From positions 104,721-168,720 of the forward strand of contig CAVXLD010000013.1 of NCBI GenBank assembly GCA_963762565.1: a DNA stretch of 64,000 nucleotides, given 5' to 3'. The DNA comes from an uncultured Verrucomicrobiae bacterium. Its GTDB lineage: Bacteria; Verrucomicrobiota; Verrucomicrobiia; Chthoniobacterales; JAFAMB01. This document shows, one piece after another, positions 26,781-59,196 of the stretch (position 1 is the stretch's first letter; each line of letters starts with the position of its first letter). A program made the position numbers and the translations under genes. The notes beneath the pieces are model-generated. The model had not been told where the DNA came from. It worked only from the letters and a program-made list of their open reading frames with translations, and made no database searches.

Positions 26781-26864
26781 TTCTCAGGGGAGTCCGCGCT
26801 TGGTTTTGTAGCGCCGCATTCTATGGTTGCTTAATGACGGACTTGCCCTAACGGATTGTGTAAA

Positions 26865-27167
26865 ATGATCCCCCAGAACATTCCCCTCTGCATTCGTTTT
26901 CTTTGCGGTCTGATGGCGATGTCATCGGTCGCTCGTTCGGATGCCGCGCAGCAAACCGCGGCAGCGACTCCGGCCTCAACTGGGTTTGTCGACGTAGATG
27001 GAGGCAAGCTCTACTACGAAGAGTCGGGTCAAGGCGCTCAAACCGTGGTTCTGCTTCATGACGGAGTAGTCGACTCAGCGGTTTGGAATGAGGTCTGGCC
27101 GGAGTGGGCCACCTTCTGTACCTGGAGAAGCCGGCGGAGTTTGCTCGGCTGGCTATCAATTTTCTAG
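26865..27167 (+). pseudogene. Truncated alpha/beta hydrolase (signal peptide plus N-terminus only)
   Basis: GGKLYYEESGQG..VVLLHDG...W, then sequence breaks down into a REP cluster; no nucleophile elbow. Confidence 0.65.
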
Positions 27168-35511: not shown

Positions 35512-36026
35512 CCCTGCGAGACTCCGGAATCGGCAGCGGCGCACCCGAAGCCTTCGATTTTGCCCGACCGACCGCTGCGATCGCGACGTAGGCCTTGCGG
35601 AGTCGGGCTACGATCACTCGGTCCCTACGGGACAGAAGCTGTCACCTCCTGTCCGCAAAATCGACTCCAACCCCATGTTATGGGGCACTCACTTGGCGTC
35701 CTCACACGTTGCATTGCGAACAAGACCTTGTTCGGATCAGACCGTGCCTCACGGGCTACCGTCATTTAGTCCCCGCCCGCCACGCTTCGCGTAGCGATGC
35801 AGGCCGGGCCAACGGGACAAGATCCTCCCACCGGCCCAGGGACGATTGTTCGTACGTTCAGGAATTCGTCCGGGTCAAAATCCGATTAAACATGTTATAA
35901 CTTGCTCGGAGTAAACAGATTACACAGTGCTTGCGCCTTGGCCCGAGAATTGTTATGCCTCGTATGGAATAGGAAGTATTCGGCGCCAGTCTTACCAGAA
36001 ACATACTGCGATTAGCAGAAACAACT

Positions 36027-36566
36027 ATGAATCGAATTCAACACGTGCATTCAATCAGACTTAGTTTTGCCGTTTTCGCCTTGTGGGCATTTGTAGCAAC
36101 CAGCAGCAACGCAAGCAATGTAGCGCCCGAGAACAAAGATCTGACTCGGCCAAGTGTACAGGTCTGGCTGACGAAAGGTCAGCACAAATTAAACTTGGAT
36201 AGCAAAGGCGTTATTCTAAAGGGATACGATCCGGTCGCTTATCTCATGCTAAGAAAGGCGGTAAAAGGAAATCCCAAGTTCCAGACTACTTACGAAGGAG
36301 CGATCTATTATTTCAGTTCCGCGACAAATCTAGCTACCTTCACGAAGAACCCTACAAAATTCGTCCCTCAATACGGCGGATTTTGCGCAAATGGAATGGC
36401 GAATAAGAAAGCCGCTGATATCGACCCGAACGTTTTCTTTGTTGTAAAAGGAAAACTGTACGTCTGCACTTCACCGGCAGCAGAGAAAGAGTTCCAATCC
36501 AATCTGCAGGAGAACATCAAGAAAGCGGATCAAAATTGGGGCGACCAGTACGAATGGTTTTATTAA
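36027..36566 (+). CDS. Secreted YHS-domain protein with C-terminal YEWFY tail
   Basis: Signal peptide; GYDPVAY, PQYGGFCANG and KADQNW motifs. Confidence 0.85.
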   Translation: MNRIQHVHSIRLSFAVFALWAFVATSSNASNVAPENKDLTRPSVQVWLTKGQHKLNLDSKGVILKGYDPVAYLMLRKAVKGNPKFQTTYEGAIYYFSSATNLATFTKNPTKFVPQYGGFCANGMANKKAADIDPNVFFVVKGKLYVCTSPAAEKEFQSNLQENIKKADQNWGDQYEWFY

Positions 36567-36934
36567 AAGCGGCGTAGCGGCATAGCTGCTAATCGTCGTC
36601 GAGCACGAGCGGGTTCGGCCGTTTGGACGGCCCGCTCGCTGCCTGAGAAAGTAATCAGTAACCACTTATCAGTTTTAGGAGGTAGGGGCTATAAGGCGCG
36701 AGGCGGTCTTGGTCAATATTGGAGGGTCGCGTTTCTGGGGCCGCGGGGCGAGGGTGCTGGACTCATTAAAATCTATAATGCACCATTTACTGGAGCGTCC
36801 GCTCCTAGATTCTGGCTCCTAGCTCCTCGACTGATTACTGACCCACTGATTACTGAACACTTTTTAGGCCCGCCCAGAGCGTCCTCGCGAAATCTGGCGC
36901 AGAATGTGCGAACGTCCCAAGGAAGGAACCGAAA

Positions 36935-38662
36935 ATGACTCAAAAGACGGTCGCAGAGATTTTTATCGAAACACTCATTGCTGCTGGCGTGACCCGGATT
37001 TACGGAGTCGTAGGCGACTCACTGAATGGGATTCTGGAAGAGGTTCGACGCAATAAACAAATTGAGTGGATCGGAGTACGGCACGAAGAAACCGCGGCAT
37101 TCGCAGCAGGCGCTCAAGCCCATTTGACCGGAGAGCTGGCCGTTTGCGCCGGCAGTTGTGGTCCAGGCAACATGCACTTGATCAATGGGCTTTATGATTG
37201 CCACCGAAGCCGCGTACCCGTCTTAGCTTTGGCGGCTCAAATTCCGAGCCAGGAGATCGGAAGCAATTATTTTCAGGAAACACATCCGGACCAGCTTTTC
37301 CGCGATTGTAGTGACTACTGTGAGTTGATTTCCCAGACCACCCAGATTCCGCGAGTGCTAGAGATCGCGATTCAAACCGCGTTAACCAAGAAGGGTGTAA
37401 CCGTTGTCGCGATACCCGGAGATATCGCACTCAAGCCGGCAGCGTATCGCAAACCGAGCGCGACCGTAAAGCCGTGTCACCCGGTAGTGAGCCCTTCGGA
37501 CGAAGAGATCAATAGCTTAGCGACGCTGCTTAATCAGGGTAAAGCGGTTACTATTCTTGGTGGGGCTGGATGCGCAGGAGCGCACGCCGAGCTGATGCAG
37601 CTAGCCGGCAAACTAAAATCGCCCATGGTTTCTGCGCTAAGAGGGAGGGAACACATCCAATACGATAATCCGTATGACGTGGGTCTAACCGGGCTAATCG
37701 GTTTCTCTTCCGGTTACCACGCCATGATGGAGGCCGACACGGTGTTAATGCTGGGTACCGACTTTCCCTACACTCAGTTCTACCCAGAGAAAGCCACGGT
37801 TATCCAGGTCGATCTCCGGGGCGAGAACCTGGGTCGTCGCACGCGATTGGACCTCGGGGTCGTCGGGGACGTGAAAGCGACGCTGCGTGGACTATTGCCG
37901 CTGGTCACCCAGAAGGAGGATAACGCGCATTTAAAACGGTTCGTCAGCCACTATGAAGATGTACGTAAGGGATTAGATGAACTGGCGGTGGGGCACCCGG
38001 GTCGCAAGCCGATGCATCCGCAATTTGTCGCGAAAGTGGTGGATGAATTGGCAGCTGAAGACGCAATTTTTTCCTGTGATGTCGGCACACCGACGGTCTG
38101 GGCCGCCCGTTACCTCACCATGAATGGCAAGCGGCGCCTATTAGGTTCGTTTAATCACGGATCGATGGCGAACGCGATGCCTCAAGCCATTGGCGCGCAG
38201 CTTGCCTTCCCGGATCGTCAAGTTGTCACCTTTTCCGGTGACGGTGGGCTATCCATGATGCTAGGCGATCTATTGTCGCTCCATCAGCACAAGCTACCGG
38301 TTAAGATAGTCGTTTTCAGCAACAGCGCGCTGGCGTTTGTCGAATTGGAAATGCTGGCAGCCGGCATTCTAGGTGAGGGGACTGAGTTGGTGAACCCTGA
38401 TTTCGTCGGGTTAGCCCGTTCCGCAGGGATGTTTGGTGTTAAGGTGGAAGACCCGGGCGATTTGAAGCAGGCAGTAACGGAGGCGTTCCGTCACGACGGA
38501 CCGGCGCTGGTCGAAGCAGTGGTTAATCGTTCGGAGCTTTCCATGCCGCCGACGATCAAGCTCAATCAGGCTGTCGGGTTCAATTTGTGGGCGCTGAAAG
38601 CCGTCCTCAATGGCCGCGGCGATGAGGTCATCGACCTGGCGGTCAGTAATTTAGTTCGGTAG
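36935..38662 (+). CDS. poxB: Pyruvate dehydrogenase (quinone) / pyruvate oxidase
   Basis: GDSLNG, RHEE, GSCGPGN, GSFNHGSMANA and GDGG TPP motif. Confidence 0.95.
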   Translation: MTQKTVAEIFIETLIAAGVTRIYGVVGDSLNGILEEVRRNKQIEWIGVRHEETAAFAAGAQAHLTGELAVCAGSCGPGNMHLINGLYDCHRSRVPVLALAAQIPSQEIGSNYFQETHPDQLFRDCSDYCELISQTTQIPRVLEIAIQTALTKKGVTVVAIPGDIALKPAAYRKPSATVKPCHPVVSPSDEEINSLATLLNQGKAVTILGGAGCAGAHAELMQLAGKLKSPMVSALRGREHIQYDNPYDVGLTGLIGFSSGYHAMMEADTVLMLGTDFPYTQFYPEKATVIQVDLRGENLGRRTRLDLGVVGDVKATLRGLLPLVTQKEDNAHLKRFVSHYEDVRKGLDELAVGHPGRKPMHPQFVAKVVDELAAEDAIFSCDVGTPTVWAARYLTMNGKRRLLGSFNHGSMANAMPQAIGAQLAFPDRQVVTFSGDGGLSMMLGDLLSLHQHKLPVKIVVFSNSALAFVELEMLAAGILGEGTELVNPDFVGLARSAGMFGVKVEDPGDLKQAVTEAFRHDGPALVEAVVNRSELSMPPTIKLNQAVGFNLWALKAVLNGRGDEVIDLAVSNLVR

Positions 38663-38766
38663 GATCCAGGAGATCACCAATCGTGATAGGCCATCGGCGC
38701 ATTTGATTACACACGGACTGGTCCTGCTGGCAGTTAGAGCGTGGGCTACGCAATGGTAGCCGAAAA

Positions 38767-39720
38767 ATGATTATCAAGATTATTGAACCGCTTGGCGAAT
38801 CAGAAGACGCGATCCGCGCTCGGATCGGGGATCTTCTTGATGAAGGCGGCCATCACCTGTTGATGTGTGACACCCGCGGCCTGGCTGATGCCGACGTGAT
38901 CAAGGTAATAAAGGACGCTGATATCCTCTTGCTTAGTAACCGGCCGCTTTCCGCGGATGTGATTAATGCGTGTCCCAAACTTAAGTTAATTTGTGTAGCG
39001 TTTACTGGTATTGATCATGTGGACCAAGGGGCGTGTAAGGCGCGCGGTATTATTCTCCATAATGCGGCAGGTTATGCTGTGCACGCGGTTAGCGAGTTGG
39101 CCATCGGTCTGATGATCGCACTGCTCCGGCGAATCATACCGGCCAACGCCAAGGCGCGCAGCGGCGGTACTAACGATGGTCTGGTCGGGCACGAACTGTT
39201 TGGGAAAACTCTGGGCGTGATCGGATGTGGCCATATTGGCTTGCAGGTGGCCCGTTTAGGCAATGCTTTTGGTTGTCAGGTGCTCGGTTTCGATCCGCAC
39301 GTAGTTAAGGTCGATGACGTAGAAGTGGAGCAAGTTCAGTTAGATGACCTGTTGAGCCGAAGCGATATTGTCACTTTGCATTTACCACTGATCCCCGAGA
39401 CCCGTGGCTTTGTTGGACGCGACCAGTTAACAAAAATGAAGCGATCCGCGATCCTCATCAATACGGCGCGCGGGCCAATCATCGACCAAGCAGCGTTGAT
39501 AGAAGCACTCAGCCAGAACCGGCTTGCCGGCGCCGGACTCGATGTATTCGACTTGGAACCGCCGCTGCCTGCGAATCACCCGATTTTGGCGGCGCCGAAC
39601 ACGGTGCTGACGCCTCACATCGGGTTCGAGACCGTCGAGGCCATGGCGGCAAAGGCAAATATCGCCCTCGGCCATTTAGAAGATTTTTTAAGGCAACAAT
39701 CGAAAGGAAAAAATTTATGA
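38767..39720 (+). CDS. D-isomer specific 2-hydroxyacid dehydrogenase
   Basis: GCGHIG, NTARG, DVFDLEP and TPHIG motifs. Confidence 0.92.
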   Translation: MIIKIIEPLGESEDAIRARIGDLLDEGGHHLLMCDTRGLADADVIKVIKDADILLLSNRPLSADVINACPKLKLICVAFTGIDHVDQGACKARGIILHNAAGYAVHAVSELAIGLMIALLRRIIPANAKARSGGTNDGLVGHELFGKTLGVIGCGHIGLQVARLGNAFGCQVLGFDPHVVKVDDVEVEQVQLDDLLSRSDIVTLHLPLIPETRGFVGRDQLTKMKRSAILINTARGPIIDQAALIEALSQNRLAGAGLDVFDLEPPLPANHPILAAPNTVLTPHIGFETVEAMAAKANIALGHLEDFLRQQSKGKNL

Positions 39721-40046
39721 AGCCCACAAGCGTTCGAAAGAAACACCCTTTTAATAGCGCATTTCTCGCGGTCCTGGCCGCGGTTTTGACGCTAATGCTC
39801 AATGCCGCTGCGGACCCAGTCAGCGACCTCCGGTCACTGTCGGCTCTGAAAGACTTGGACCTCTCCAGACTATCCGGAGGAAATGTGTCAGCGACTGGTG
39901 AACCTCTTGGCCGGTTCGCACGGGGGATGTCCGTACAAAGTGCCTACGTTGTTCGAGCTCCCGTCAGATCTACGGTCGTCCTTATCCAGCAATGGAATCC
40001 GACGCGGTATCCAAGGTTGCGGATTTATCTCGCCCCCGGTTGTTAA
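39717..40046 (+). pseudogene. Probably truncated secreted protein
   Basis: Signal peptide plus ~75 aa, then an abrupt end overlapping the next gene's signal-peptide region. Confidence 0.5.
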
Positions 40047-40972
40047 TCGCCCTTAGCCTGACCGCCCTTAATCTAGGCGTGTACAGTGCGGATGCCCAAA
40101 ATCTCGCGACGGCCCCGACCTTATCGACTGGAGGTGGAGTCTCGCAGAGCGGCAACTTGTCGACGTTCTCTTACGAATTCTCAACCGATGGCGCCTTTAT
40201 CGGTAGGGGCTCGGTCGACCTCGGCAACAAGACGGTTGGCATCTTTAAGGAGGTCACCAGCTCGGCGAATTTCGTGCTCTCTGACCAGATCTCGACTCCT
40301 TTTATTCTGCGGTTAGGTATCGACTGGGACCGGTTCGCTTTCAACACCACTAACCGGCTGACCCCGTTACCCGCTTCTGTCGACGCTCTGGACGCCGTCA
40401 TCGGGGGTGATATTCAGCTAACCTCGGCGTTATTGATCAGGATCGAGGCTCACCCGGGTATCTACGGCAGCTTCAACAGTGTTACCGGACGCGATTTTAA
40501 CGTCCCCATTCGGATTGGTGCATCTTACGTTGAAAGCTCTAATCTGATCTTCATAGCGGGTCTCAGTATCGACATAGATTCTGATTGGCCGGCGATTCCG
40601 GCAGTCGGTGTCTACTGGAAGGTGTCGGACCAATGGGTAATCAACGGCGTCGCTCCCCGGCCACAGCTGCAGTATGTCGTTTCCGATAAGCTAACCTTAT
40701 TTGTTGGAGCCGATCTGCAGACTGAGACCTTTCGGGTGGACAACGAGTTCGGCACATCCCGCGGTATACCAAAGTTAAATCACGCCATTTTGGACTTTTG
40801 GGAGATCAGAGGTGGCGCCGGTTTCACCTGGGCCATCACCGACGCAATCAAACTTGATCTCGAAGGGGGTGCCGTTCCCTATCGCCAGTTCGATTTTAAT
40901 CGAGCAGATTTCAATATGTCATCTTCCAGCTGGTCGCCGTATATTAGTCTCAGGCTTTCTGCCAGCTTTTGA
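39992..40972 (+). CDS. Outer-membrane beta-barrel protein (DUF6268-like); start uncertain
   Basis: Amphipathic beta strands; PAIPAVG..W and P.P motifs; C-terminal ISLRLSASF. Confidence 0.75.
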   Translation: MESDAVSKVADLSRPRLLIALSLTALNLGVYSADAQNLATAPTLSTGGGVSQSGNLSTFSYEFSTDGAFIGRGSVDLGNKTVGIFKEVTSSANFVLSDQISTPFILRLGIDWDRFAFNTTNRLTPLPASVDALDAVIGGDIQLTSALLIRIEAHPGIYGSFNSVTGRDFNVPIRIGASYVESSNLIFIAGLSIDIDSDWPAIPAVGVYWKVSDQWVINGVAPRPQLQYVVSDKLTLFVGADLQTETFRVDNEFGTSRGIPKLNHAILDFWEIRGGAGFTWAITDAIKLDLEGGAVPYRQFDFNRADFNMSSSSWSPYISLRLSASF

Positions 40973-41044
40973 GACCAACGGCGGTTCTTACGCGCCTTCT
41001 GCGTTTCCGACCTGCTGCGCGGATGCTTTGCGGACTTGGCGCGG

Positions 41045-41206
41045 TACTCCAACACTCCATCACTCCGCGTGGCCGGATTCGAGGACAGCCTGTCCGACGA
41101 AGCCTAAGCTCTATGTTGCCAACCGCTCGAAGTCGGCCTCGCAAGCGAGGCGCGCTCCACAATCAGGACGTTGGCGAAGTCGGAATGACGACGAGAACGA
41201 AGCGCC
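41045..41206. repeat. Nested composite repeat, copy 2
   Basis: Matches 4897-5065. Confidence 0.8.
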
Positions 41207-41313
41207 TTGTGAGCGACAGACAGCCGTTCAGACAGTGGTTACGGCTGTCCAAACAAAAATGCTCCTCCGTGCGGATTTTGACATTCCATTAACGAACCCG
41301 AAGCTACCAAAAA

Positions 41314-42126
41314 ATGTCTACGATCCTTTTACAGGTTAACGGAATTTCACTGCACGTTGAGGATCTTGGCAGCGGTAAGCCGGTGCTCTTGCTCCACGGG
41401 TGGCCGGACTCGGCGTATCTTTGGCGTAACCAGATCCCGTTTCTGGTCAAGAACGGCTTCCGCGTAATCGCGCCGGACTCGCGTGGCTTGGGACGTTCCG
41501 CTCGCCCGGAGGGAGTGGCTGCGTATGCCGTGCAAAACTCGGTCAGTGATGTAGTCGGCATTCTTGACGCGCTTGGTGTCGACACCGCGGATGTCGTGGG
41601 CCACGACTGGGGAGCGGCCGTTGCTTGGTTCACGGCGTCGGTTCACCCGAATCGCGTTTGCAGGCTCGTCGTTCTTTCGGTGCCACATCCGCTCGTACCG
41701 CCCACGCTGCGGCAGCGGGAGATGGCTTGGTACCAGCTGTTCTTCCAGTTTGAGGGAATCGCGGAAGCTTGGCTACAGCAGGACAATTGGGCGCTGTTCC
41801 GGCAGTGGAGCCGAGGCAACGGTGATATCGATCGTCATATCTCGGATTTGTCGCGGCCGGGGGCCCTGACCGCATCGCTTAACTGGTACCGGGCAAACCT
41901 CGCGCCACGCATGCCGGGGTCACCCCGTGAGCTGCCGCCGGTACAGGCTGCAACACTTGGCATCTGGTCCACAAATGATCACTACCTCGACGGCGAGCGC
42001 GTGCAGATGTCGAATCGCTTCGTGAAAGGACCCTGGCGCTACGAGCAGATAGATGGAGCCAGCCACTGGATTCCGCTGGATGCATGCGACCGGCTGAACC
42101 AGCTCCTCATCGAGTGGCTGCGCTGA
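41314..42126 (+). CDS. Alpha/beta hydrolase (epoxide hydrolase-like)
   Basis: HGWP, GHDWG, LNWYRAN and ASHW motifs. Confidence 0.9.
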   Translation: MSTILLQVNGISLHVEDLGSGKPVLLLHGWPDSAYLWRNQIPFLVKNGFRVIAPDSRGLGRSARPEGVAAYAVQNSVSDVVGILDALGVDTADVVGHDWGAAVAWFTASVHPNRVCRLVVLSVPHPLVPPTLRQREMAWYQLFFQFEGIAEAWLQQDNWALFRQWSRGNGDIDRHISDLSRPGALTASLNWYRANLAPRMPGSPRELPPVQAATLGIWSTNDHYLDGERVQMSNRFVKGPWRYEQIDGASHWIPLDACDRLNQLLIEWLR

Positions 42127-42129
42127 TCG

Positions 42130-42268
42130 TTGCCGCCGCAGCAAGGCGTGAATGGGAATCCACCCTCTCCCGATCAACTGCAGCACTTCGTTCTCACCAG
42201 CAACCGTTATGGTTATTGGTTAGCAACTCCAGAAGAGAATGCTGCAGCCGGAATTTCGCTTTTTTTAA
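42130..42268 (+). pseudogene. Orphan C-terminal gene fragment (resembles tails of cupin-type proteins)
   Basis: PPSPDQLQHFVLTSNRYGYWLATPEENAAAGI reads as protein-like but has no N-terminus; family assignment from recall. Confidence 0.4.
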
Positions 42269-42841
42269 CTACCGGACAGCCCTCGCGATTTGCAGGCTCA
42301 GTTTTAATACCGCTTCACTTAACAGCGCGACCATTCGCGCGTCGTCTCCCAGTTTCCAGCCGGAACGACGGATTGAGAAGGAATTGGTTGCCACCGTCGT
42401 GCCGCTGGAGGAGGCAATGCGCCACGTGCCGGCCACGATGACATCTCCGGTTTGATGTCCTTCGAAGTGGGTGATCCGAATGATCACATCCAGTGTGTGA
42501 GCGGGCGGCCGCTGGGCTGGCCGAAAACCCATAGCAGGTATCTCAGCGCCGCTCAGGTTCGCCGCGACGGCGTCCGCGATCGTTTCATCTAAAGGCGCCG
42601 CCCATAAACCCCTAGGCGAGTACCGGACCTCGTTCCCCTCCATGCTTGCCAGGTTCCTCCTCGCGAGATCAGCCGGTACCTCGACTTTTTCGACGTAGAT
42701 CTTTATCGGCCCCGACTGCGCCGGGCCTCCTTGGATCCCGAGTACGTAATAGGTCAGCGACGGCCGTGTTGTTGCGCACCCCAGCGGAAGCCCGGCGCAC
42801 AGCATCAGAGCTGTTGGCCAGATCAGTGGAGCGTGCTTCAC
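42269..42841 (-). CDS. PqiC-like ABC auxiliary lipoprotein
   Basis: Lipobox PLGC; YYVL, WAAPL and FEG motifs; GTG at 42841 (longer ORF call is in repeats). Confidence 0.78.
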   Translation of the reverse strand: MKHAPLIWPTALMLCAGLPLGCATTRPSLTYYVLGIQGGPAQSGPIKIYVEKVEVPADLARRNLASMEGNEVRYSPRGLWAAPLDETIADAVAANLSGAEIPAMGFRPAQRPPAHTLDVIIRITHFEGHQTGDVIVAGTWRIASSSGTTVATNSFSIRRSGWKLGDDARMVALLSEAVLKLSLQIARAVR

Positions 42842-43144
42842 TGGGCGCTTCGTTCTCGTCCTCGTCCTCGAATCCGGTCGAGCGGAGTGATGGAATACCG
42901 GAGTGATGGAGGAGTGCGTCCGCGCCCGTGGGGTCGCCGATCCGGTCGAAACCGTGGAGCGCTGCCTCGCTTGCGAGGCCGTGGTGAACAGGGGTGATAT
43001 TGTGCCAGGCGCGTCGTCTGGCTGCGCGCCAGCCTGTGCTCGAGGGCAGACCTCGCGCAATAGAGCACCGACCGAAATAGGGTTGGCATCACGAAGTTCC
43101 CTGCTCACCACGGCCTCGCGAGCGGGGCAGCGCTCCAAAAGTGG

Positions 43145-43570
43145 CTAAGACAAAAATTTCGTGGTCAGAGTGATGTTGGCCTTAAGTACGCGTGAGACCG
43201 GACAACCGGCTTTCGCCTGATTCGCGATTTCTTCAAACTTGGCCGCATCAAGGCCTGGAACCCGGCCAGTCAAATCCAGGTGGACTGCCGTAATGGTCCA
43301 GTTGCTCTCGACTTGTTCCAACGTGAGCGTCGCTTCAGTCGTGAGTTCTTCGGGTGTGAAGCCGGCGCCACCCAGAAACGCGGATAACGCCATGGTGAAG
43401 CAACCGGCGTGAGCAGCCGCTATGAGTTCTTCGGGATTCGTTCCAATACCGCTCTCAAATCGCGTCGAGAACGAGTATTGGGTTTTGTTTAAGACGCCGC
43501 TTTGCGTGGAAAGCGTGCCCTGGCCCTTCTTGAGGTCTCCTTGCCAAACTGCGGATGCTGTACGATTCAT
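43145..43570 (-). CDS. osmC: OsmC peroxiredoxin
   Basis: GTNPEELIAAAHAGCF and CPVS motifs. Confidence 0.95.
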   Translation of the reverse strand: MNRTASAVWQGDLKKGQGTLSTQSGVLNKTQYSFSTRFESGIGTNPEELIAAAHAGCFTMALSAFLGGAGFTPEELTTEATLTLEQVESNWTITAVHLDLTGRVPGLDAAKFEEIANQAKAGCPVSRVLKANITLTTKFLS

Positions 43571-43716
43571 ATTGGTTTTGTCTGGTTAGATATCGGTCGA
43601 ACCATGAGGATTCGATTTTCGAGGCATACTACACCGAGATGTGTGCCGCAAAAGTGTCTTCGTCATCCTCAACGGAAAATAAATCATGGATGCAGGTGAT
43701 CCAATTCGGGCAGGGG

Positions 43717-46700
43717 CTATGATTTTAAGCCGCTTCGCGGCGGCGCCAACCTTCCAACTAGGGACAACCATCGCCAGATCCGTGACACTCGTGGAACAAT
43801 GACCTCAATAGTCGTGCCACTGCCCGGGCAACTGGTGATCCGGATCCTACCGCCGAGTCGTCGGACGCGTTCCTCGATTCCAACAAGGCCCAGTCCACCC
43901 GACATCCCGCTTTCGTCCGGAGCGGTCTTGATCGATCCGCCGCACGGCTTGTAGTCAAATCCAATTCCGTCATCGCGAAGGCAAAGCCGCAGCTCCTCTG
44001 GTCGGTAATTCAATTCTAGATCGAACTGGCTCGCCCTGGCGTGTTTCAACGTGTTGGTGAGAGATTCCTCAGCAATTCGCACTAGAGCTTGCTCACAATC
44101 GGACCCGATTCGGTATGGTGCGCCCAGGACTTTAAGTTGGCAGCATAGTCGTGTGCCATCCGCGGTTCGGTTCAGAACCGCCTCTAATGCGGATGGCAAG
44201 GACACACTGGTCTCGAATACCCCTGAGCGCAGTGCTCGCATAGCGAGGCGCGTTTCCTTCAGGTTCTCACGCGCCAATTTGGACACGTCATCAAGGCTTT
44301 CGAGCACCGGATCGAAATGCATTTTCTTGGCAAGACTCTTGGTTGCTTCAAGCCGCCAGACGAGTCCAACCGTGCCTCTTGCCACGGTGTCATGTAGCTC
44401 GCGCGCCAACCGGGTCCGTTCTTCCAGTATCTGTTGCAGCCGCCACCGCCAAAGAAGCCAGACGGCCAGAATGAATGCCCCGGCGCACAAAAGGGCAAAC
44501 CAGATTGTCTGGTAAAAATGTGGTTGCACAACTATGGTCGTGGAGGCAGCAGCTTCTTCCGGAACCCAAAGTCCGTCATTGTTACAAGCAACGACTCTGA
44601 ACCGGTAGGTACCAGGAGCGAGATTTGTGTAGTAGGCTTCCGCGTTCGTTCCTGCATCGATCCAATCTTTATCGAACCCATCCAGCCTATATTTGAATCG
44701 AACCTTCTCAGGCGCTGTAAAACTTAATCCGGCATAGTCGAATTCCAAATAATGAGCGCCGGGACCGAGCTGGACGACTTGGTTTCCCGCTCGGATTGGG
44801 AGGACGTGGATTAGGTCGGCAACGACCCGCTCAATTTGTACCGCGGGTAGCAGGGAATTGAATTGCAAATGGTTAGGATCGATCACAGCCAGCCCGGCGA
44901 TCGTTCCAAACGCAAGCCGGCCATCGGGTAATCGGCACCCGGCAGGAAAATAAACGTTGCTACAGTCTGGAGATTTGAGACCATCAGCTTTTCCGAAAGC
45001 CCGGCAATTAACCGAAGAGCGTTTCCCATCGAAAAACTCATTCAACGCGTGCTTCGAAACACAAAAGATCCCGCGTGAGCCGCTCGACCAGAGGTTGCCA
45101 TTGTCATCCTCCAGAAGACAAAAGAATTCTGGTGCAAGTATTCTTTCGTCGGGTCGAAACGCGACAAGAGCCCATTTTCCGGCCTTCAACCGGTAGAGCC
45201 CGTTTACTCCGCCGGCCCAAACCGTCCCGTCCGAATCGTCGTACGTTGAAAGGATCGTAGTTTTCGACAGCATTTCGGCGTTCACGCCTGGGATGCTGAT
45301 CGTTGAATCTTGAAGTACGTCGACCTCGGGGGTTTCGCCAATCCAAGCTCTTTCCTCACGATCGATGGTTAGCGAAAAAATCGAGCGATTCCGCAGCCCA
45401 TCTGCGGAAGTAAACGTTCTTACCAGTTGGCCATTGCGAAACACTTGGAGACCGGCGCCGGCCGTACCGACGAGGAGATCTCCGGCACGGTTGTTGCAGA
45501 TCCCCATTGCGTAGCCCGGGCCACCCTCTCTATTTAACGCCGCTACCCGCTGGTCTTGACCATTCTGCAACCGATGCAACCCACCATCCCTAGTGCCAAA
45601 CCAGACCATTCCATGAGGATCCTCGTACAAGGAAGTCACTTCCATCGATGAAGCTGGCTCTCCCTCCGACCCCAGCGATATGCGCTCAATTGTGCCGTTC
45701 TTAAGGCAAGCTAAACCACCGCTTGTCCCGATCCAGATCCGTCCCTCGCTACCGGCTGCGACAGTGCCAACGTTGTCACTAGGGAGTCCGTCACGCGTGG
45801 CGTAAGTAATGACTCTGACATCAGAGAGTCGTTCAAGTCCTTCGCTTGTCGCCAGCCAGATATTCCCTTCTCGATCTTCGAAGATTTGCTGGATATTTGG
45901 CAGAGGCCGCCCATTTTCTGGCGGCAATTGACTCAACTGATCGGTACCCGGCTCAATCCGCCACAAGCCACCACCAGCGATGCTCGCCCATATCATACCG
46001 TGCGAGTCAGTCATTAGGGTCTGGATCGAGAGTCGGCCCAGGTCGTTGGGAATCGGTTGAAAGATGCCGTTCTCAAGCCGAGCCAGACCGAGGCCAGTCC
46101 CAGCCCAAAGGCGGCCCTTCGAATCGACGCACAGGCCGTAAACCTCATTAGCAGGTAAGCCATCGATCTTAGAAAATCTCCGTATCTCACCAGATTTCCT
46201 ATCGATTCGATCGACCCCAGATGCTGTGGCAACCCAGACCGCACCATCGTTGGTTTCGCTGAACGCGTAAACCTGATGACGTGCCAAATCCAAAGACCCT
46301 GCGTAGGTCGAAAAGCGGTTCTCTTTGAACTGGAGCAAGCCGTAATTTTCGGTTCCAACCCAAAGTATTCCCTCTTTGTCCAGAAAAAGAGGCTGCAGCG
46401 GATCGTCCGGTACACCATCTTTATTGCCGAACCGCTTAAACTCACCGTTTGGCAGCCGGCAGTACATCGCTTTCCAAGAGCTGATCCATAACTCGCCGGA
46501 AGACCCCAGAAGTAGTGAATAAACATCAAGCGGCAGCTCGATGTTGGCCTGAATGTCCTTTCCCACATCGAACTTCTTGCCGTCGAATCGAATTAGACCA
46601 TGCACAAACCTAAGCCAAAGAAAGCCGTCCTGGGTCTGAGCAATGCCTGCAGTCACGTTCTGGGGAAGCCCCTGATCCTGATCCCAACGAACCAATCGGT

Positions 46701-46890
46701 ACTGGCCTAGCGACCGGCCAGGGTCCAGAGCAAAAGTAGTACTCAGCAGAGGAATTGACACCATTAACCAAAACGCTAGAGCCCGAAAGCTACACAAACG
46801 CCTCGTTCGATATCTTGTTAGCTTGAAACCGAAGGCCGAATCATAAGCACGGAGCTCAGATTTCAGTGGCAGAGTTGACTCTGATTTCAT
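43717..46890 (-). CDS. Sensor histidine kinase with periplasmic beta-propeller (Reg_prop) repeats, Y_Y_Y domain, TM, HisKA_3 and HATPase
   Basis: D..G.LW.GT repeats, YTNLAPGTY.F.V, ERTRLARELHD, DDGIG and GLGLVG motifs. Confidence 0.93.
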   Translation of the reverse strand: MKSESTLPLKSELRAYDSAFGFKLTRYRTRRLCSFRALAFWLMVSIPLLSTTFALDPGRSLGQYRLVRWDQDQGLPQNVTAGIAQTQDGFLWLRFVHGLIRFDGKKFDVGKDIQANIELPLDVYSLLLGSSGELWISSWKAMYCRLPNGEFKRFGNKDGVPDDPLQPLFLDKEGILWVGTENYGLLQFKENRFSTYAGSLDLARHQVYAFSETNDGAVWVATASGVDRIDRKSGEIRRFSKIDGLPANEVYGLCVDSKGRLWAGTGLGLARLENGIFQPIPNDLGRLSIQTLMTDSHGMIWASIAGGGLWRIEPGTDQLSQLPPENGRPLPNIQQIFEDREGNIWLATSEGLERLSDVRVITYATRDGLPSDNVGTVAAGSEGRIWIGTSGGLACLKNGTIERISLGSEGEPASSMEVTSLYEDPHGMVWFGTRDGGLHRLQNGQDQRVAALNREGGPGYAMGICNNRAGDLLVGTAGAGLQVFRNGQLVRTFTSADGLRNRSIFSLTIDREERAWIGETPEVDVLQDSTISIPGVNAEMLSKTTILSTYDDSDGTVWAGGVNGLYRLKAGKWALVAFRPDERILAPEFFCLLEDDNGNLWSSGSRGIFCVSKHALNEFFDGKRSSVNCRAFGKADGLKSPDCSNVYFPAGCRLPDGRLAFGTIAGLAVIDPNHLQFNSLLPAVQIERVVADLIHVLPIRAGNQVVQLGPGAHYLEFDYAGLSFTAPEKVRFKYRLDGFDKDWIDAGTNAEAYYTNLAPGTYRFRVVACNNDGLWVPEEAAASTTIVVQPHFYQTIWFALLCAGAFILAVWLLWRWRLQQILEERTRLARELHDTVARGTVGLVWRLEATKSLAKKMHFDPVLESLDDVSKLARENLKETRLAMRALRSGVFETSVSLPSALEAVLNRTADGTRLCCQLKVLGAPYRIGSDCEQALVRIAEESLTNTLKHARASQFDLELNYRPEELRLCLRDDGIGFDYKPCGGSIKTAPDESGMSGGLGLVGIEERVRRLGGRIRITSCPGSGTTIEVIVPRVSRIWRWLSLVGRLAPPRSGLKS

Positions 46891-47134
46891 TTGGCCAATT
46901 CCCCTGGGGTACGTCAGAAAGCTTGGCTCGAAACAGCGGTCGATGTCCTTGAGTGGTCTTTAAGCTGAATTAGCGCAATAGAAAAGTCACTTTCCGAGGA
47001 GCTCGACGAGTTCACCTGAGGCTCCCCCTGAATAGCAGATAGCAAATAGCAAATCATCCAGCGCTCGGTAGCTCTAGTGCCCTTTTTCCATGTGTTATTT
47101 GCTATTCTGAACGAGCCTAAGCAAGTTCAGCTCG

Positions 47135-47215
47135 CTCCCTCTAAAGACAGAGGACCATTTAGTCCGCCTGCGGGCCGTTACCCTCTCTCATCGGGCCAAC
47201 TTTTTTCCTATCTTA
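47135..47215 (+). promoter_or_regulatory. Conserved promoter module (operator palindrome, CTC...CGG element, TATCTTA)
   Basis: CTCCCTCTAAAGACAGAG is 16/18 identical to the minus-strand site at 53700-53717; downstream elements have the same spacing. Confidence 0.6.
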
Positions 47216-47277
47216 CGTCGTATGGCAGCGATCGAATCAACAAACGATTTTGTACACGTAAATCAACTTACATCGAA

Positions 47278-47505
47278 ATGAACTACGCGATTAAATCATT
47301 ATTGAATAGCAAGCACGGTCTCCAAGTCATGCTGATGGCGCCGGTACTGGGCATCTTGGCCTTTACCGGATGCTCCCACATTGACGGTACGGCTCAAAAG
47401 CAGCCATTAAAGAAAAACAGAGTAGCCGTCTACTCCGAATGGAGCCAAACGGAAGCACAAGCGGCTGATTCTAATCCGGATCCGGGATATGAATGGTTTT
47501 ACTAA
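47278..47505 (+). CDS. Small lipoprotein (75 aa) ending in DPGYEWFY
   Basis: Hydrophobic region with lipobox FTGC; C-terminus identical to that of the YHS protein. Confidence 0.7.
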   Translation: MNYAIKSLLNSKHGLQVMLMAPVLGILAFTGCSHIDGTAQKQPLKKNRVAVYSEWSQTEAQAADSNPDPGYEWFY

Positions 47506-54219: not shown

Positions 54220-57200
54220 CTAAAACCAGCCGGGACGACAGGCGGATGCGGGCGCAATCACTTGAATCTCGGTTCCCTTGCCAGTTTGACTTAAAATCGT
54301 GAATTGACCGCCCAATGCTCTACAGCGTTCCTTCATACCGGGAATACCGAGGCCCGACGAGGTCGCGGTCACCGGCCCAGTGTCGCCGGCAGAATCGGCA
54401 ACGCCAACGCCGTCATCTCGCAGTTGAAGGGTAAGGCCTTTGCGTTCAAAGAAGAGGTCAACTTCGAACCGGTGTGCATTAGCATGTTTAAGTGTGTTGG
54501 CCACCGCTTCCTGAGTGATCCTGACGAGCGCCTGTTCGCATTCCGAGCGCAAACGAAAGGGCCGGCCGTGAACCCGAACTTCCGTGGTTAAGGTTGTCGC
54601 AGATGTCGCTTTTTTAACGATGTTTTCGAGGGCGTACGCCAAAGAAGGCGACGCAGTTAAAATGCCGGCTCGCAATGCTCTCAGTGCGCCTCGCGCCTCC
54701 GTCAACGTTTCCCGGGCGAGCATGCGCATGCTCTCCAGAATCTGGATAGTTTTATCTCCCTGTCCTTTTCGTTCTGAGTTAATTGCCTTCTCAGTTTGCC
54801 ATAATATTCCAACCAGGCCTTGCGCCAGGGTGTCATGCAGATCGCGCGCTAGACGCGCTCTTTCTTGCAAGATCTGGGCGAGACGCCAGCGATACAGGCC
54901 CCAGATCCCCAGGGCGATGAGGACCAGGCAAAGAGAATAGAACCACCAAGTCTGATAGTAATGGGGCTGGATTACAAATTCGGTTGTGGCAGCGAGGTTG
55001 TCCCGAGGCCAGATTCCATCCCGGCTGCATGCGATCACCCGGAAAAGGTAATCGCCGGGTGGCAGACTGGTATAATACGCCACACGCCGAGTACCGGCAG
55101 CGACCCAGGTAGCGTCGAAGCCATCGAGCCGGTATCGGTATTGCAGATTTTCGGGCGCCGACAAACTGAGGCCAGCATAATGAATCTCGATGCTATGAAT
55201 ATCCGGGGAAAGCACTGTAGGAGGCTCACCCGGACGCAAGGGAATGTATTGGGTAAGGTTAGCTATTAACCTCTCGAGTACGATGGGCGGTGCTCGCGAA
55301 CTGGCGACGAGAGTTTCCCGAGCCGCAACCGCTAGTCCTCCAGCGGTTGCGAACCAGAGGCGACCGTCGACTGATTGGCAGCTGGTGTTAGCGTTGCCAC
55401 CGCTGCATTCCGCTGTGGCCAGGCCATCAGCCGCCGTGAAGCGCCGGCAAGTCACCGTTGATCGCTTTCCATCGAAGAAGTCGTTTAGATCTTTGATCGG
55501 GGTCGCAAAGATTCCCCGATTACTAGTCGCCCAGAGATTCCCTGTGTCGTCCTTAAGCAGGGTGAAAAACTCATCGCTAAACAGGCCATCAGCTGTATTG
55601 CATAGATTGCCCGCTGATCCGTTTCGGATCCTGGCGAGCCCGTAGCCGAACGTTCCGGCCCATAGCGTGCCATCGGAATCGGCGAGCAACGTGATAAATC
55701 CCAGATCATGGGCAGGACTATCCTTTGGAAGCGCATCCCGGAGCACGCCGTCGGAGTACCTCAACAGACCACGTCCGGGAGCAATCCAGAGGGCGCCATC
55801 GGGTCCGAGCGCTATCGCGCGCGCGACATTGTCTCTGATTCCGTCTCGCTCGGTAAACCTGCGAATCAACTTACCGTCATGAAAGCAAAAGAGACCAGCT
55901 CCACCGGTCCCCACCCACAAGTCACCCGACGGAGTCCCATAGAGCGCGATAATGTCGGCCGCAGGAGTGAATCGGATAGGCTCTGTCTCGACTGAAAATG
56001 GAACTTCGCGAAATGCTTGCAGAGAGCCATCCGCGGTCCCCACCCATAGTAAGTTCCGCGCGTCTTCGTACAGTGCGGCCACCTGCTCCGATAAAATCGA
56101 TGAAACTGGCGATACCAGCGTTGCTTGCGCGTCAGCCGCTGAGTTTAGAAATGCAAGACCAGCTTCAGTGCCTACCCAAATTTTTCCCGTTCGGGAAGCA
56201 AGCACCGAGAAAACCAGATCGCTAGGTAGACCCTGCTTTGAGTTGAAAATGGTAAACCGAGTATCAGAAATTCGAAATAGACCCGCGTCCGACCCGACCC
56301 AGACATCGCCCTCCCGATCCTCGCAAAATGCTGAAACCGGGATGGTTTTGCGCCCCTCTATCGGTGAAACAAGCGACCGGAATTCCGCCTCTCCAATCTT
56401 TGGATCGGGCAACATGCGCCAGACCCCACCGTTTTTAGAACCGGCCCAAATCATCCCGTGACTGTCAGTAAAGAGCGCAGTGATCTCACTATTGTCGGTC
56501 CGCGGCAACCGAACCGGTGAAACTTGATTATCCTCAATAGAAAACAGGCCCTGGTCGGTGGCCACCCAGACTCGATCGAGCAGGTCTGTTGTAAGAGCCC
56601 CGGTGGGCGCACCAAGGAGACCAGTCTTTGCGTCCATTAAGCGCACGGTTCCGCTGGCTTTGTCGATGCGATAAAGGCCGCCCGAGGCGGCGACGAAAAG
56701 ATCACCTGATTTTAGCGAACAAATCCGTTTGACCACTTGCCGCCGGAGCCCCTGGGCCAGCGTATGCTCGATGAATCGGTCACCGCTTTGCCGGAACAAA
56801 CCTCCTTGATATGTTCCAATCCAGACGATTCCTTCGCTGTCCACCGCAATTGCCGAAACATCCGCATGCGGTACTCCATTCGTTTGATCCAGATAATGAA
56901 ATCTGCCTTTTCCAGCGCGACAATAGACTCCTGCATAGCAGCCCATCCAGAGTTCACCGGCTGCATCGACGCACAAACACGTCGCTCTCCGGCGCCTGAA
57001 GGGCTTCTGCTGAAATTCGCCGGGCACGAAGAATTCGGCTCCATCGAATCTTACCAGCCCTTCTTCGCTCGCGACCCAAAGAAATCCATCCGGGGTTTGG
57101 GCGAGGCCACGAATGGAATCCTGCAGCAGACCATTCTGCTGATTCCACATCGCCATCCGGCACTGGGCCAGCGGGGTATCTGGATTTAATGCTAGGAGGG

Positions 57201-57309
57201 AATGAGAGAAAACCCAGATAGAAAACACCGCGGCGCTGCGTAGAAAACCTTTAAAAAGCAGGGGTTTTCTTGTTGTCACTGGGTGAGAATCTTTCCAGAC
57301 TTTTAGCAC
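54220..57309 (-). CDS. Second beta-propeller/Y_Y_Y/HisKA_3 sensor histidine kinase
   Basis: ALNP..LAQ N-terminus, propeller repeats, YTSLPPGDY, ERARLARDLHD and DDGVG motifs. Confidence 0.93.
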   Translation of the reverse strand: MLKVWKDSHPVTTRKPLLFKGFLRSAAVFSIWVFSHSLLALNPDTPLAQCRMAMWNQQNGLLQDSIRGLAQTPDGFLWVASEEGLVRFDGAEFFVPGEFQQKPFRRRRATCLCVDAAGELWMGCYAGVYCRAGKGRFHYLDQTNGVPHADVSAIAVDSEGIVWIGTYQGGLFRQSGDRFIEHTLAQGLRRQVVKRICSLKSGDLFVAASGGLYRIDKASGTVRLMDAKTGLLGAPTGALTTDLLDRVWVATDQGLFSIEDNQVSPVRLPRTDNSEITALFTDSHGMIWAGSKNGGVWRMLPDPKIGEAEFRSLVSPIEGRKTIPVSAFCEDREGDVWVGSDAGLFRISDTRFTIFNSKQGLPSDLVFSVLASRTGKIWVGTEAGLAFLNSAADAQATLVSPVSSILSEQVAALYEDARNLLWVGTADGSLQAFREVPFSVETEPIRFTPAADIIALYGTPSGDLWVGTGGAGLFCFHDGKLIRRFTERDGIRDNVARAIALGPDGALWIAPGRGLLRYSDGVLRDALPKDSPAHDLGFITLLADSDGTLWAGTFGYGLARIRNGSAGNLCNTADGLFSDEFFTLLKDDTGNLWATSNRGIFATPIKDLNDFFDGKRSTVTCRRFTAADGLATAECSGGNANTSCQSVDGRLWFATAGGLAVAARETLVASSRAPPIVLERLIANLTQYIPLRPGEPPTVLSPDIHSIEIHYAGLSLSAPENLQYRYRLDGFDATWVAAGTRRVAYYTSLPPGDYLFRVIACSRDGIWPRDNLAATTEFVIQPHYYQTWWFYSLCLVLIALGIWGLYRWRLAQILQERARLARDLHDTLAQGLVGILWQTEKAINSERKGQGDKTIQILESMRMLARETLTEARGALRALRAGILTASPSLAYALENIVKKATSATTLTTEVRVHGRPFRLRSECEQALVRITQEAVANTLKHANAHRFEVDLFFERKGLTLQLRDDGVGVADSAGDTGPVTATSSGLGIPGMKERCRALGGQFTILSQTGKGTEIQVIAPASACRPGWF

Positions 57310-57365: not shown

Positions 57366-58559
57366 TTACACATTCAAGATCGGGAGCGTCGCGCACACGC
57401 GAGTACCGTGCCCAGCGCGACTGAAGATTTCCAGCATGCCACCCCGCTGGGTTGCGCATTCCTGCATGCCTTTGATGCCGTACCCTTCGCTATGCTCTTC
57501 GGATGCGCTCGGGTCGAAGCCGGCGCCGTCATCTGCAATCTCAAGTTTGACCCGGTCGGCGTACCAAATGAGAGTGGCTTCCAACCTCCGCGGCCGGGCG
57601 TGGTGCAAAGCGTTATTGATTGCTTCTTTCGATATTTGAAACAATCCTTTCAGCGTCTCTGCTCCGACCGTTCGGGGGGCTTCACCGATTTCACGGAAGT
57701 GGGAGATGAGGTCGCTTTCGTCGCCCGCTTCTCGAATCAGATCGATCAGCATCTGCGATGGGCTGGTTGAGCCGGAGTGCTCCGGGCGCAATACAAGTGT
57801 TGTGCGTCGAACCAATTCAATCCCAAGCCTGGCCAATTCCCTGGCCCTATCAATTGCTCTCGAAGCCTTCGCCGGATCTGATTTCAAGAAAGACTGTGCA
57901 CCGGCCAAATGCATGGAGATAGCAGCCAAAGACTGAGCGACACTTTCATGTACTTCACCAGCCGCCCGCATCCCTTGATGCGCGATTTCAGCGTCCTTAG
58001 CCCGATTACTGATCCTCAATAGCTGAATGGCTAGGGCAGCCTCATTCATGAGATTCTCGACGAAGTCTAACCGGCTGGAAGGAGGTGGTTGCAATCTCCG
58101 GCAACCGAATACGGCCAGACCGATCGGGCGCGCATTAAAGATGAGGGGCACGGCAAGCCCTCCCTGCAAACCCAGGCGTCGATACCAAGGAATTAACCAT
58201 TTGAAGGAGAGCTTGTTTTCGTCATTTAAATCGCGCCATTGATACGTCCCGCTGGTCATCAGCTCCTGCCAAATGGTTGACTGATGGACTGAAAAAGGTT
58301 CGCGTAGTTCGATGAATCGGTCTTCGTTGAAAAAATCGACTGGCTGGCCATCCTCGAGGACGATCGCCGTTCGCATCCGGTTCGACTGCTCATCGAACAA
58401 GAAAATTGCGGCTGAAGGCGCGGCTATTGCCTGAGCGGATTCCGTAAGCGCGCCGATCACGAACGGCCACAAATCGTCGGCATTTGTCAGGCTAGCTAGC
58501 GATCGCCTTAAAGCGTCGTTAGCGGCCGCAAGTTCGGCCACCTCGTCTTCATCAACCAT
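57366..58559 (-). CDS. Cytoplasmic GAF-domain HisKA_3 histidine kinase
   Basis: GAF-like LAVPL...PIG; RAAGEVHESVAQ (degenerate H-box); DDGAGF and GYGIKGM. Confidence 0.85.
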   Translation of the reverse strand: MVDEDEVAELAAANDALRRSLASLTNADDLWPFVIGALTESAQAIAAPSAAIFLFDEQSNRMRTAIVLEDGQPVDFFNEDRFIELREPFSVHQSTIWQELMTSGTYQWRDLNDENKLSFKWLIPWYRRLGLQGGLAVPLIFNARPIGLAVFGCRRLQPPPSSRLDFVENLMNEAALAIQLLRISNRAKDAEIAHQGMRAAGEVHESVAQSLAAISMHLAGAQSFLKSDPAKASRAIDRARELARLGIELVRRTTLVLRPEHSGSTSPSQMLIDLIREAGDESDLISHFREIGEAPRTVGAETLKGLFQISKEAINNALHHARPRRLEATLIWYADRVKLEIADDGAGFDPSASEEHSEGYGIKGMQECATQRGGMLEIFSRAGHGTRVCATLPILNV

Positions 58560-59196
58560 GACCACGCACCAAACCCCTTCGGATTGCCGTCGATACTGCT
58601 TCTGAGCGGCTAATAACATCCAGCTTATAAAAGATGCTCTTCACGTGAGTCTTGACTGTCCCCTCAGTGATAAAAAGCTTTGAGCCGATCTCTTTGTTAG
58701 ATTTGCCTTCGCACATCTGGCGTAGTACCTCGAGTTCCCGCTCGGTCAGTTCAGCTCGGAAAGCAAACGTGGCCAGTTTTCCCCCTAGTTTTGCGGGCAA
58801 GTAGTTTGCACCTTGGGATACGGTTCGGATTGCATCGGCGATTTCTTCTTTTTCAGCTTCCTTCAGCAAGTAACCCTTGGCGCCAGCCTTCAGGCTTTGC
58901 TTCAGATCTTCCTCGTTGTCGAATGTGGTGAGGATGATTACTTTCGCTTGGAACTTACTCACTAGCTCGCGTGCGACCTGGATCCCGTCCTGCTTCGGCA
59001 TGCGAAGGTCCAATAGCAAGACGTCGGGCAACAACCTGGCATATTCTTCGCAAGCCTGTTCTCCATCTTCGGCGAAACCGACAAACTCAAAGTCCGGTTC
59101 CTCGCCCAGCACCGTGACCAGGCCCTCGCGAACGATCAAATGGTCGTCCGCCAACATGATACGGATCTTGTTCTCTTGTTTATCGGTTGTTTTCAT
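58552..59196 (-). CDS. NarL/FixJ family response regulator (REC plus LuxR HTH)
   Basis: DDH, LLDLRMP and LTERE...SNKEI...TVKTH motifs. Confidence 0.95.
   Translation of the reverse strand: MKTTDKQENKIRIMLADDHLIVREGLVTVLGEEPDFEFVGFAEDGEQACEEYARLLPDVLLLDLRMPKQDGIQVARELVSKFQAKVIILTTFDNEEDLKQSLKAGAKGYLLKEAEKEEIADAIRTVSQGANYLPAKLGGKLATFAFRAELTERELEVLRQMCEGKSNKEIGSKLFITEGTVKTHVKSIFYKLDVISRSEAVSTAIRRGLVRGHG

Follow-up and report, generated by a model that had tools for sequence, protein, structure and literature searches.

PEP-CTERM, GlyGly-CTERM and LPXTG are C-terminal sorting signals, the beta-signal of outer-membrane proteins combines aromatic residues at −1, −3 and −5 with a consensus glycine on the last barrel strand, and Bacillus Phr peptides are made with a signal peptide, a linker and a C-terminal pentapeptide. 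In Pseudomonas aeruginosa, according to the passages that describe them (PMC3819740, PMC8545111, bioRxiv 10.1101/2025.04.28.651061), the small protein MucE, which ends in WVF, activates the site-1 protease AlgW via its PDZ domain and is expressed in an AlgU-dependent manner, resulting in positive feedback, and DimA has a signal peptide, a body modelled with low confidence and a W-x-F end (WTF) that is required to activate AlgW. In S. meliloti, the relevant passages of one report describe RpoE1 and SMc01418 as an operon of an extracytoplasmic function (ECF) sigma factor of group ECF26 and its anti-sigma factor together with a small exported protein, give the ECF26 promoter consensus as GGAATA at −35 and GT at −10, and call the activation of ECF26 sigma factors hypothetical (PMC6180224). 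Here we analyse a 64,000-nt stretch (the window) of the genome of an uncultured Verrucomicrobiae bacterium in which two genes, one for a YHS-domain protein and one for a small lipoprotein, encode the same C-terminal pentapeptide, YEWFY, which we refer to as the type-A tail. Judged by the database names of homologues, the organism belongs to the Verrucomicrobia, Chthoniobacterales. Our findings point to a real, apparently undescribed microprotein system with exchangeable tails that is narrow for type A and family-wide in its principle. We consider it probable that the type-A tail is a docking peptide of some kind, and we hold this more firmly than any one candidate for its reader.

A conserved C-terminal peptide on two kinds of exported protein

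Positions given below without a contig are window coordinates; numbers with the prefix C are contigs of the source genome and those with the prefix G are the genomes compared, with G000 as the source. Export signals were called by eye and with a hydropathy window, and are predictions only. The two genes and their tails are as follows.

36027..36566, + strand: member of the YHS-domain (seleno)protein family, 179 aa (P0001), with a predicted signal peptide, the YHS domain at residues 62-172 and a free type-A tail (translation, profile match and models).
36549..36566, + strand: YEWFY codons and stop of the YHS gene, read from the DNA.
47278..47505, + strand: lipoprotein microprotein, 75 aa (P0002), with a signal peptide, lipobox Cys32, a polar/acidic linker and a type-A tail (translation and alignment).
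47371..47373, + strand: codon of the lipobox cysteine, which is invariant in all 33 aligned relatives of the lipoprotein.
47488..47505, + strand: YEWFY codons and stop of the lipoprotein gene, read from the DNA.

Both reading frames end in YEWFY and a stop, with synonymous codon differences, and both products carry predicted export signals, just as the initial annotation of the window had described. Across the 6.1-Mb genome, four stop-to-stop open reading frames (ORFs) end in exactly YEWFY, whereas 0.003 are expected from the six-frame composition (327,548 ORF ends), and three further ORFs end in YEWFN, YEWWY and YSWFY. The seven carriers of Y-x-W-[FW]-[YN] in the genome, five of which lie outside the window, are six microproteins of 65-75 aa and the YHS protein, all predicted to be exported; other proteins with such ends, which the annotation had proposed to look for, thus do exist in this genome. 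The microproteins split into two main scaffolds, a lipoprotein one and a Phe-rich one, with some smaller groups besides. They could be assigned to no Pfam or NCBIfam family, matches to the WGxxGxxG family fell below the cut-off, and the nearest ESM Atlas clusters are unnamed or generic lipoproteins.

P0001 scores 132 bits against YHS_seleno_dom (NF041384), for which the curated cut-off is 70, and because this match spans residues 62-172 of the 179-aa protein, the tail comes after the YHS domain. The second YHS paralogue of the genome (C7:270359) carries no YEWFY-like tail. In both AlphaFold2 models of the YHS protein, one of which was built from 95 tail-bearing sequences, the tail has a predicted local distance difference test score (pLDDT) below 50 and is not packed on its own YHS domain; a fold search with the YHS model returned partial YHS/TRASH-like matches only, and no covariation above 0.27 bits was found between tail and YHS-domain positions. 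These models suggest that the tail is free of the YHS fold. The two window proteins are alike over their last 17-19 residues only, including an AD-x-N motif at equal offset (hhalign probability 90 over 17 columns; BLASTP 9/19), with no likeness further upstream. The claim that the rest of the two genes is unrelated therefore stands for the upstream parts and falls for the last 17-19 residues, which look like shared modules.

The pattern of conservation in the tail argues that it is the peptide that is maintained. Among the best 120 of 1,438 YHS homologues, to which all YHS tail statistics refer, W-[FW]-Y is terminal in 117 and one more has six residues after the core; within the 117 tails W is fixed, position −4 is E in 74 and R in 43, and position −5 is Y in 104 and D in 13. 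All 120 listed microprotein homologues end in W-[FW]-[YN] with W at −3, and 96 of them end in YEWFY, figures that overstate conservation as the set was collected with a tail-containing profile. A search made without the word itself gave 63 new matches, of which 50 bear the tail, the others being truncated, frameshifted, provided with another tail or unrelated. Across 29 distinct loci, Y, E, F and Y are each encoded by either of their two synonymous codons, and DNA likeness between carriers ends at the stop codon. The tail does not appear to travel as a mobile DNA cassette, because the likeness of the 3′ untranslated regions (3′ UTRs) of the carriers is at null level. We conclude that the type-A tail is kept by selection at the protein level, which bears out what the initial annotation had read from the codon differences. 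It is extremely improbable that the tails are chance or neutral debris of gene shuffling; some copies are indeed truncated or read through, and one YHS remnant has lost its core (L266), but this reading would have to account for four exact ends against 0.003 expected, for a Trp that is invariant while linkers diverge and codons vary, and for two to seven microproteins in each of the six genomes of the genus, as counted by profile search.

Among the genomes searched, type A is restricted to one genus and to two carrier types. Exact YEWFY ends were found in 5 of the 43 family genomes, each of them belonging to this genus (reversed control zero), and 12 of 400 other genomes of the phylum yielded a single match each, which is below the reversed control and refers to loci that were not inspected singly; a search across the phylum had been proposed in the initial annotation. 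Of at least 114 metagenome loci that match the pattern, 18 are family members (15 microproteins and 3 YHS proteins) and 96 were set aside as chance ORF ends or unresolvable fragments. No third carrier type was found among these loci or in the family searches, and a whole-protein profile search for longer proteins (7,996 candidates) returned only over-long or read-through microprotein calls, a weak result given that it missed the YHS carriers themselves. The word YEWFY has no mention in the text of 8.1 million PMC papers or in bioRxiv, a scope outside which most subscription journals fall, in agreement with the earlier statement that the tail is undescribed.

This narrow choice of carriers bears on the suggestion that the tail is a general sorting or anchoring signal for exported proteins. 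Although all carriers are predicted to be exported and the motif is strictly terminal, as such a signal would require, only two carrier types were found in these searches, the microproteins offer no cargo to sort, and the stop follows the motif directly, with no transmembrane or basic segment after it. We regard a general sorting signal as highly improbable, and this part of the initial annotation is not upheld.

The neighbourhoods of 41 type-A loci bear on two other readings. The microproteins could be precursors of released peptide signals whose tail is cut off and sensed, as in Bacillus Phr, and the signal peptide, variable linker and conserved short C-terminal motif, together with several tail types sorted by genus, are what this would predict. 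No receptor gene is a constant neighbour across the 41 loci, however, paralogues share one tail rather than diverging (96 of 120 have the same pentapeptide), many carriers are lipid-anchored, and the YHS carriers would go unexplained, so that we find released signals quite unlikely. Alternatively, the crowding of three to four aromatic residues into five positions, preceded by acidic residues, might mark the core or modification site of a ribosomally synthesized and post-translationally modified peptide (RiPP). The N-terminus of the microproteins is an export signal rather than a RiPP leader, and no recurrent modifying enzyme was seen among the neighbours of the 41 loci, as judged by eye from first residues with no family scan; a RiPP is an even more remote prospect than a sorting signal.

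Exchangeable tails in related genera

Outside the genus, profile matches cover the signal region but end otherwise, and these ends fall into four further types: tail B, Y-x-P-P-x-S-P-G-F...G-S; tail C, Y-N...F-x-x-P-W-P-F-G; tail D, G-Q-P-Y...G-P-R, of which there are two examples only; and tail E, V-x-A-A-N-R-x-W-Y-Q. Each of the four is seen on both YHS proteins and microproteins in sister genera, and a hydrophobic export region is present in 82 of 94 tail-bearing ORFs that are not YHS proteins. A single scaffold cluster bears tail A in 18 cases, C in 15, E in 4 and B in 2, the Phe-rich scaffold bears A in 9 and B in 7, and beside a similar LysR gene a lipoprotein is encoded that has tail A in the source genome and in G057 tail C. 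When the six tail classes are placed on a tree of 40 YHS cores, in which many branches are weak, they require nine changes where the minimum is five, and A and E occur together in one clade. The tails thus behave like modules that YHS proteins and microproteins can exchange. For the motif words of tails B to E there was no relevant paper among the matches listed in PMC and bioRxiv, and likewise none for DUF6600, a domain considered below.

Type C was matched in 40 of 43 family genomes and type B in 33 of 43 (E-values up to 0.1, some of the matches being weak), and type C was also found in 3 of 11 genomes of one other family. The source genome has three tandem type-C proteins and no significant type-B match. 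We note that six genomes, from two genera, have a Porin_5 gene with two or three small type-C proteins (P-W-P-F-G) encoded after or beside it (L278, L277, L332, L333, L392, L393), in G000 just before pstB (C13:9371-10401), and that these proteins are candidate porin-binding peptides. We also note four chimeric microproteins (P0054, P0088, P0101, P0171), in which a lipoprotein N-terminus is fused either with a YHS type-D end or with the second, C-terminal half of the Phe-rich scaffold and which may be assembly chimeras, and two other small exported proteins of the genome (C5:93752 and C3:757476) with ends rich in Trp, Tyr, Gly and Pro that are unrelated to tails A-E.

With respect to the origin of the tails, the ends of YHS proteins may have been the donors, because the last YHS helix contributes its end to tails D and E and to some copies of A, and because the core-deleted remnant L266, from G007, carries tail C. 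A fuller picture, which we offer as possible but doubtful, is that the family draws on at least five unrelated C-terminal peptides, a library of cassettes swapped between the YHS domain and membrane-tethered microproteins, that each tail addresses a lineage-specific envelope receptor, that YEWFY replaced B and E in one genus, and that the microproteins mimic the YHS end in reduced form and so control an ECF26-type stress circuit.

The same YHS helix ends in tails D and E would fit a different role, in which each tail, as a structural element separated from its parent, would dock in trans on a folded domain, D and E being free copies of the last YHS helix and A a free copy of the segment that opens DUF6600. 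Acidic residues and Y-[DSN]-[VLI]-F-Y lie ahead of the domain in 33 DUF6600 proteins from the family (the Tyr is present in 32 of them, and FY was used to choose the site), and the form Y-x-V-F-Y is one change from the tail. Four DUF6600 proteins of genus g4 score 17-24 bits against the microprotein profile over 60-70 residues of signal, linker and motif, with no reversed control listed, and in G002 and G005 a type-A microprotein gene and a DUF6600 gene face each other. Against this, the scores are low and the linkers of low complexity, all 33 DUF6600 proteins retain their own copy of the segment, leaving no empty socket in sight, the type-A tail does not pack on its own YHS domain in either model, and docking in trans does not require a strictly terminal position. 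We consider this explanation unlikely.

The aromatic residues at −1, −3 and −5 also fit the beta-signal pattern, and a three-copy barrel family of the genome ends in V-E-W-[YF]-F, raising the question of whether the tail imitates the final strand of an outer-membrane barrel and is bound by the beta-barrel assembly machinery (BAM) or a porin. That type-C microproteins follow or flank Porin_5 genes in G000, G001, G002, G004, G005 and G011 could be taken in the same sense. The carriers are not barrels, however, the glycine at −6 of the consensus is present in only 17 of 120 microproteins and 1 of 117 YHS tails, and no type-A gene adjoins the V-E-W-[YF]-F barrels in the source genome; such mimicry strikes us as rather improbable.

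Candidate readers of the tail

Our favoured, though tentative, proposal, to which we give less than even weight, is that the YEWFY end is a free C-terminal ligand for a periplasmic reader of C-termini, most likely the PDZ domain of an HtrA-type protease, and that it tunes envelope proteolysis and ECF sigma signalling by analogy with MucE and DimA. The carrier would be exported or membrane-tethered and would display its C-terminal peptide in the periplasm; the tail would dock into the PDZ domain; docking would tune envelope proteolysis; and this could feed back on an ECF26-type sigma factor whose putative promoter motif precedes the YHS gene and the genes of one microprotein subfamily.

The genome encodes twelve PDZ-bearing proteins (18 matches), including intact two-PDZ HtrA proteins. 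Its HtrA candidates comprise a tandem pair (C7:540526 and 543036), C12:352283 and C1:1465261, and it also has two CtpA proteins. The tandem pair, of DegP-like proteins, is present in 5 of 6 genomes of the genus and in none of five other family genomes checked, a distribution that amounts to one event among kin; in G000 these tandem genes (C7:540526-544517) adjoin a two-component pair. Several observations weigh against a PDZ protease as the reader. In 6 of 6 genomes the single-PDZ DegS-like HtrA encoded next to the rpoE-like operon has Glu, Gly or Ala in place of its catalytic serine, a loss that leaves no obvious active DegS/AlgW. The tails found instead of A on these carriers, B, C, D and E, end in a non-hydrophobic residue, so that they cannot be PDZ ligands and a PDZ reader cannot explain the whole system. 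The last residue of type A is Tyr rather than Phe, and is Asn in 3 of 120. All PDZ proteases tested but one occur also in genera without type A, and none of four candidates proved to be a genus-specific PDZ protease. The link to the sigma factor is also incomplete, in that the promoter motif is missing from the window lipoprotein gene (47278) and from 19 of 26 type-A microprotein genes, five of the seven with the motif belong to one subfamily, and a genome-wide spacing control is weak (35 and 35 occurrences at 16-17 bases compared with 22-36 at other spacings).

We note that the serine-less HtrA, encoded in a tolB-pal-ECF sigma-anti-sigma-HtrA operon (C10:411320-413560 in G000; L076, with orthologues L428-L432), keeps a PDZ binding loop, and that the anti-sigma factor of this operon ends in a conserved P-V-S-Y-x-x-P-x-S-F, a possible ligand of the PDZ domain of the neighbouring HtrA.

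Two putative promoter elements lie 5′ of the YHS gene.

35966..35991, + strand: putative ECF26-type promoter-like motif (GGAATA, 16 bases, AGTC), 61 bases 5′ of the YHS start, by match to the published consensus.
35939..35953, + strand: putative sigma-54-like motif, 27 bases upstream of the ECF motif, by match to the sigma-54 consensus.

Using GGAATA-16/17-[GA]GT[AC] (background 4% for the loose pattern, 8 of 4,179 for the strict one), we found the ECF motif 5′ of 7 of 10 type-A YHS genes, including that of the window, 7 of 26 type-A microprotein genes and 5 of 18 type-B microprotein genes, all with the loose pattern. The GGAATA motif also flanks a gene for an ECF sigma factor with a zinc-finger anti-sigma factor (C7:425776-427088), and is present at 25 of 30 loci of this sigma factor (C7:426576) and its orthologues, which we assign to ECF26 from promoter and layout rather than by formal classification. 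Of 36 places of the sigma gene, eight have a type-B microprotein or type-E YHS gene no more than 6.5 kb away, where about 0.2 would be expected by a hand estimate, with the proviso that the eight come from two genera and were counted after the first cases had been seen; in G012 and G020 a YHS gene closes the operon divergent from the sigma gene. In G000 the sigma and anti-sigma genes are divergent from genes for a Tat-type metallophosphoesterase, a membrane protein and a cytochrome c, with the GGAATA motif on both sides (C7:425776-429504, L395). The second element, the putative sigma-54-like motif, occurs at 6 of 10 type-A YHS loci compared with 0.5% of background genes. An inverted repeat, ATCAG-N5-CTGAT, presumably a LysR-like box, precedes Phe-rich microprotein genes (L032, L036/L207, L069) and is found at 4 of 26 type-A microprotein genes and 0.1% of background genes.

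The initial annotation had suggested that the lipoprotein is a tethered ligand of the sensor kinase encoded next to it.

43717..46890, − strand: Reg_prop/Y_Y_Y/HisKA_3 sensor kinase, divergent from the lipoprotein gene, a candidate partner of the lipoprotein subfamily only (domain matches and neighbourhood).

The only two Reg_prop/Y_Y_Y kinases of the genome both lie within the window (43717-46890 and 54220-57309), the first of them 387 bases from the lipoprotein gene, and in both G002 and G004 the divergent kinase-lipoprotein pair has been retained amid otherwise changing neighbours. Six of the seven carriers of the genome, however, are not near a kinase, which speaks against a general proximity of tails to Reg_prop kinases; the kinase was not found in the tail-bearing genomes G003 and G005 (78-81% complete), in G002 the tail of the copy beside the kinase is interrupted by a stop, which could be an assembly error, and paralogues of the kinase have no tail gene alongside. 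What survives of the suggestion is the conserved pair, and we think it very unlikely that the lipoprotein is a ligand of the kinase. The second kinase gene sits behind another HisKA_3-like kinase gene (57366-58619). Elsewhere in the window, two short ORFs (26856-27167 and 39717-40046) look like broken genes, one an exported hydrolase-like start and one a fragment of an exported protein that overlaps a DUF6268 barrel gene.

Implications and comparison with known systems

If type A is a MucE-like activator, then microprotein control of envelope proteolysis extends to Verrucomicrobia, and the tail becomes a candidate signal that ECF26 sigma factors receive. That whole tails pass between microproteins and a folded domain provides a visible route by which larger genes could give rise to microproteins from their ends. 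It also provides a handle on the YHS (seleno)protein family, which is uncharacterised and whose C-terminus appears to be functional in its own right. The idea lends itself to a direct test with five short synthetic peptides.

Like the established sorting signals, the type-A tail is a short conserved C-terminal motif on exported proteins, but it comes with no membrane helix, no basic tail and no diverse cargo. It differs from Phr in having no adjacent cognate receptor, in being conserved between paralogues, in occurring in a diderm host and in being found also on a folded domain, and from the beta-signal in not being on a barrel and in mostly lacking the glycine. The likeness to the ECF26 system of S. 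meliloti, as far as the relevant passages go, consists of a GGAATA (−35) and GT (−10) promoter that also lies 5′ of the sigma gene, an anti-sigma factor with a zinc finger, a membrane helix and a periplasmic part, and small exported proteins in the regulon, whereas those passages make no mention of a YHS protein or a tail peptide (PMC6180224).

MucE and DimA remain the closest parallel. No sequence relation to them is seen here, no comparison of sequences having been made, there is no catalytically intact DegS/AlgW beside the rpoE-like gene, and type A differs in its many paralogues per genome, its lipoprotein forms, its presence also on a folded YHS protein and the four alternative tails of sister genera. 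Nevertheless, as in the described parts of those systems, the carrier is a small exported protein with a body of low structure and a Trp two residues from the terminal aromatic at a free C-terminus, and, as for MucE, expression may be tied to an ECF sigma factor, here for some carriers and by motif. It is because a strictly terminal W-x-aromatic end on a small, exported and unstructured carrier is what MucE and DimA use on AlgW that we favour, tentatively, a MucE/DimA-like role for the type-A tail.

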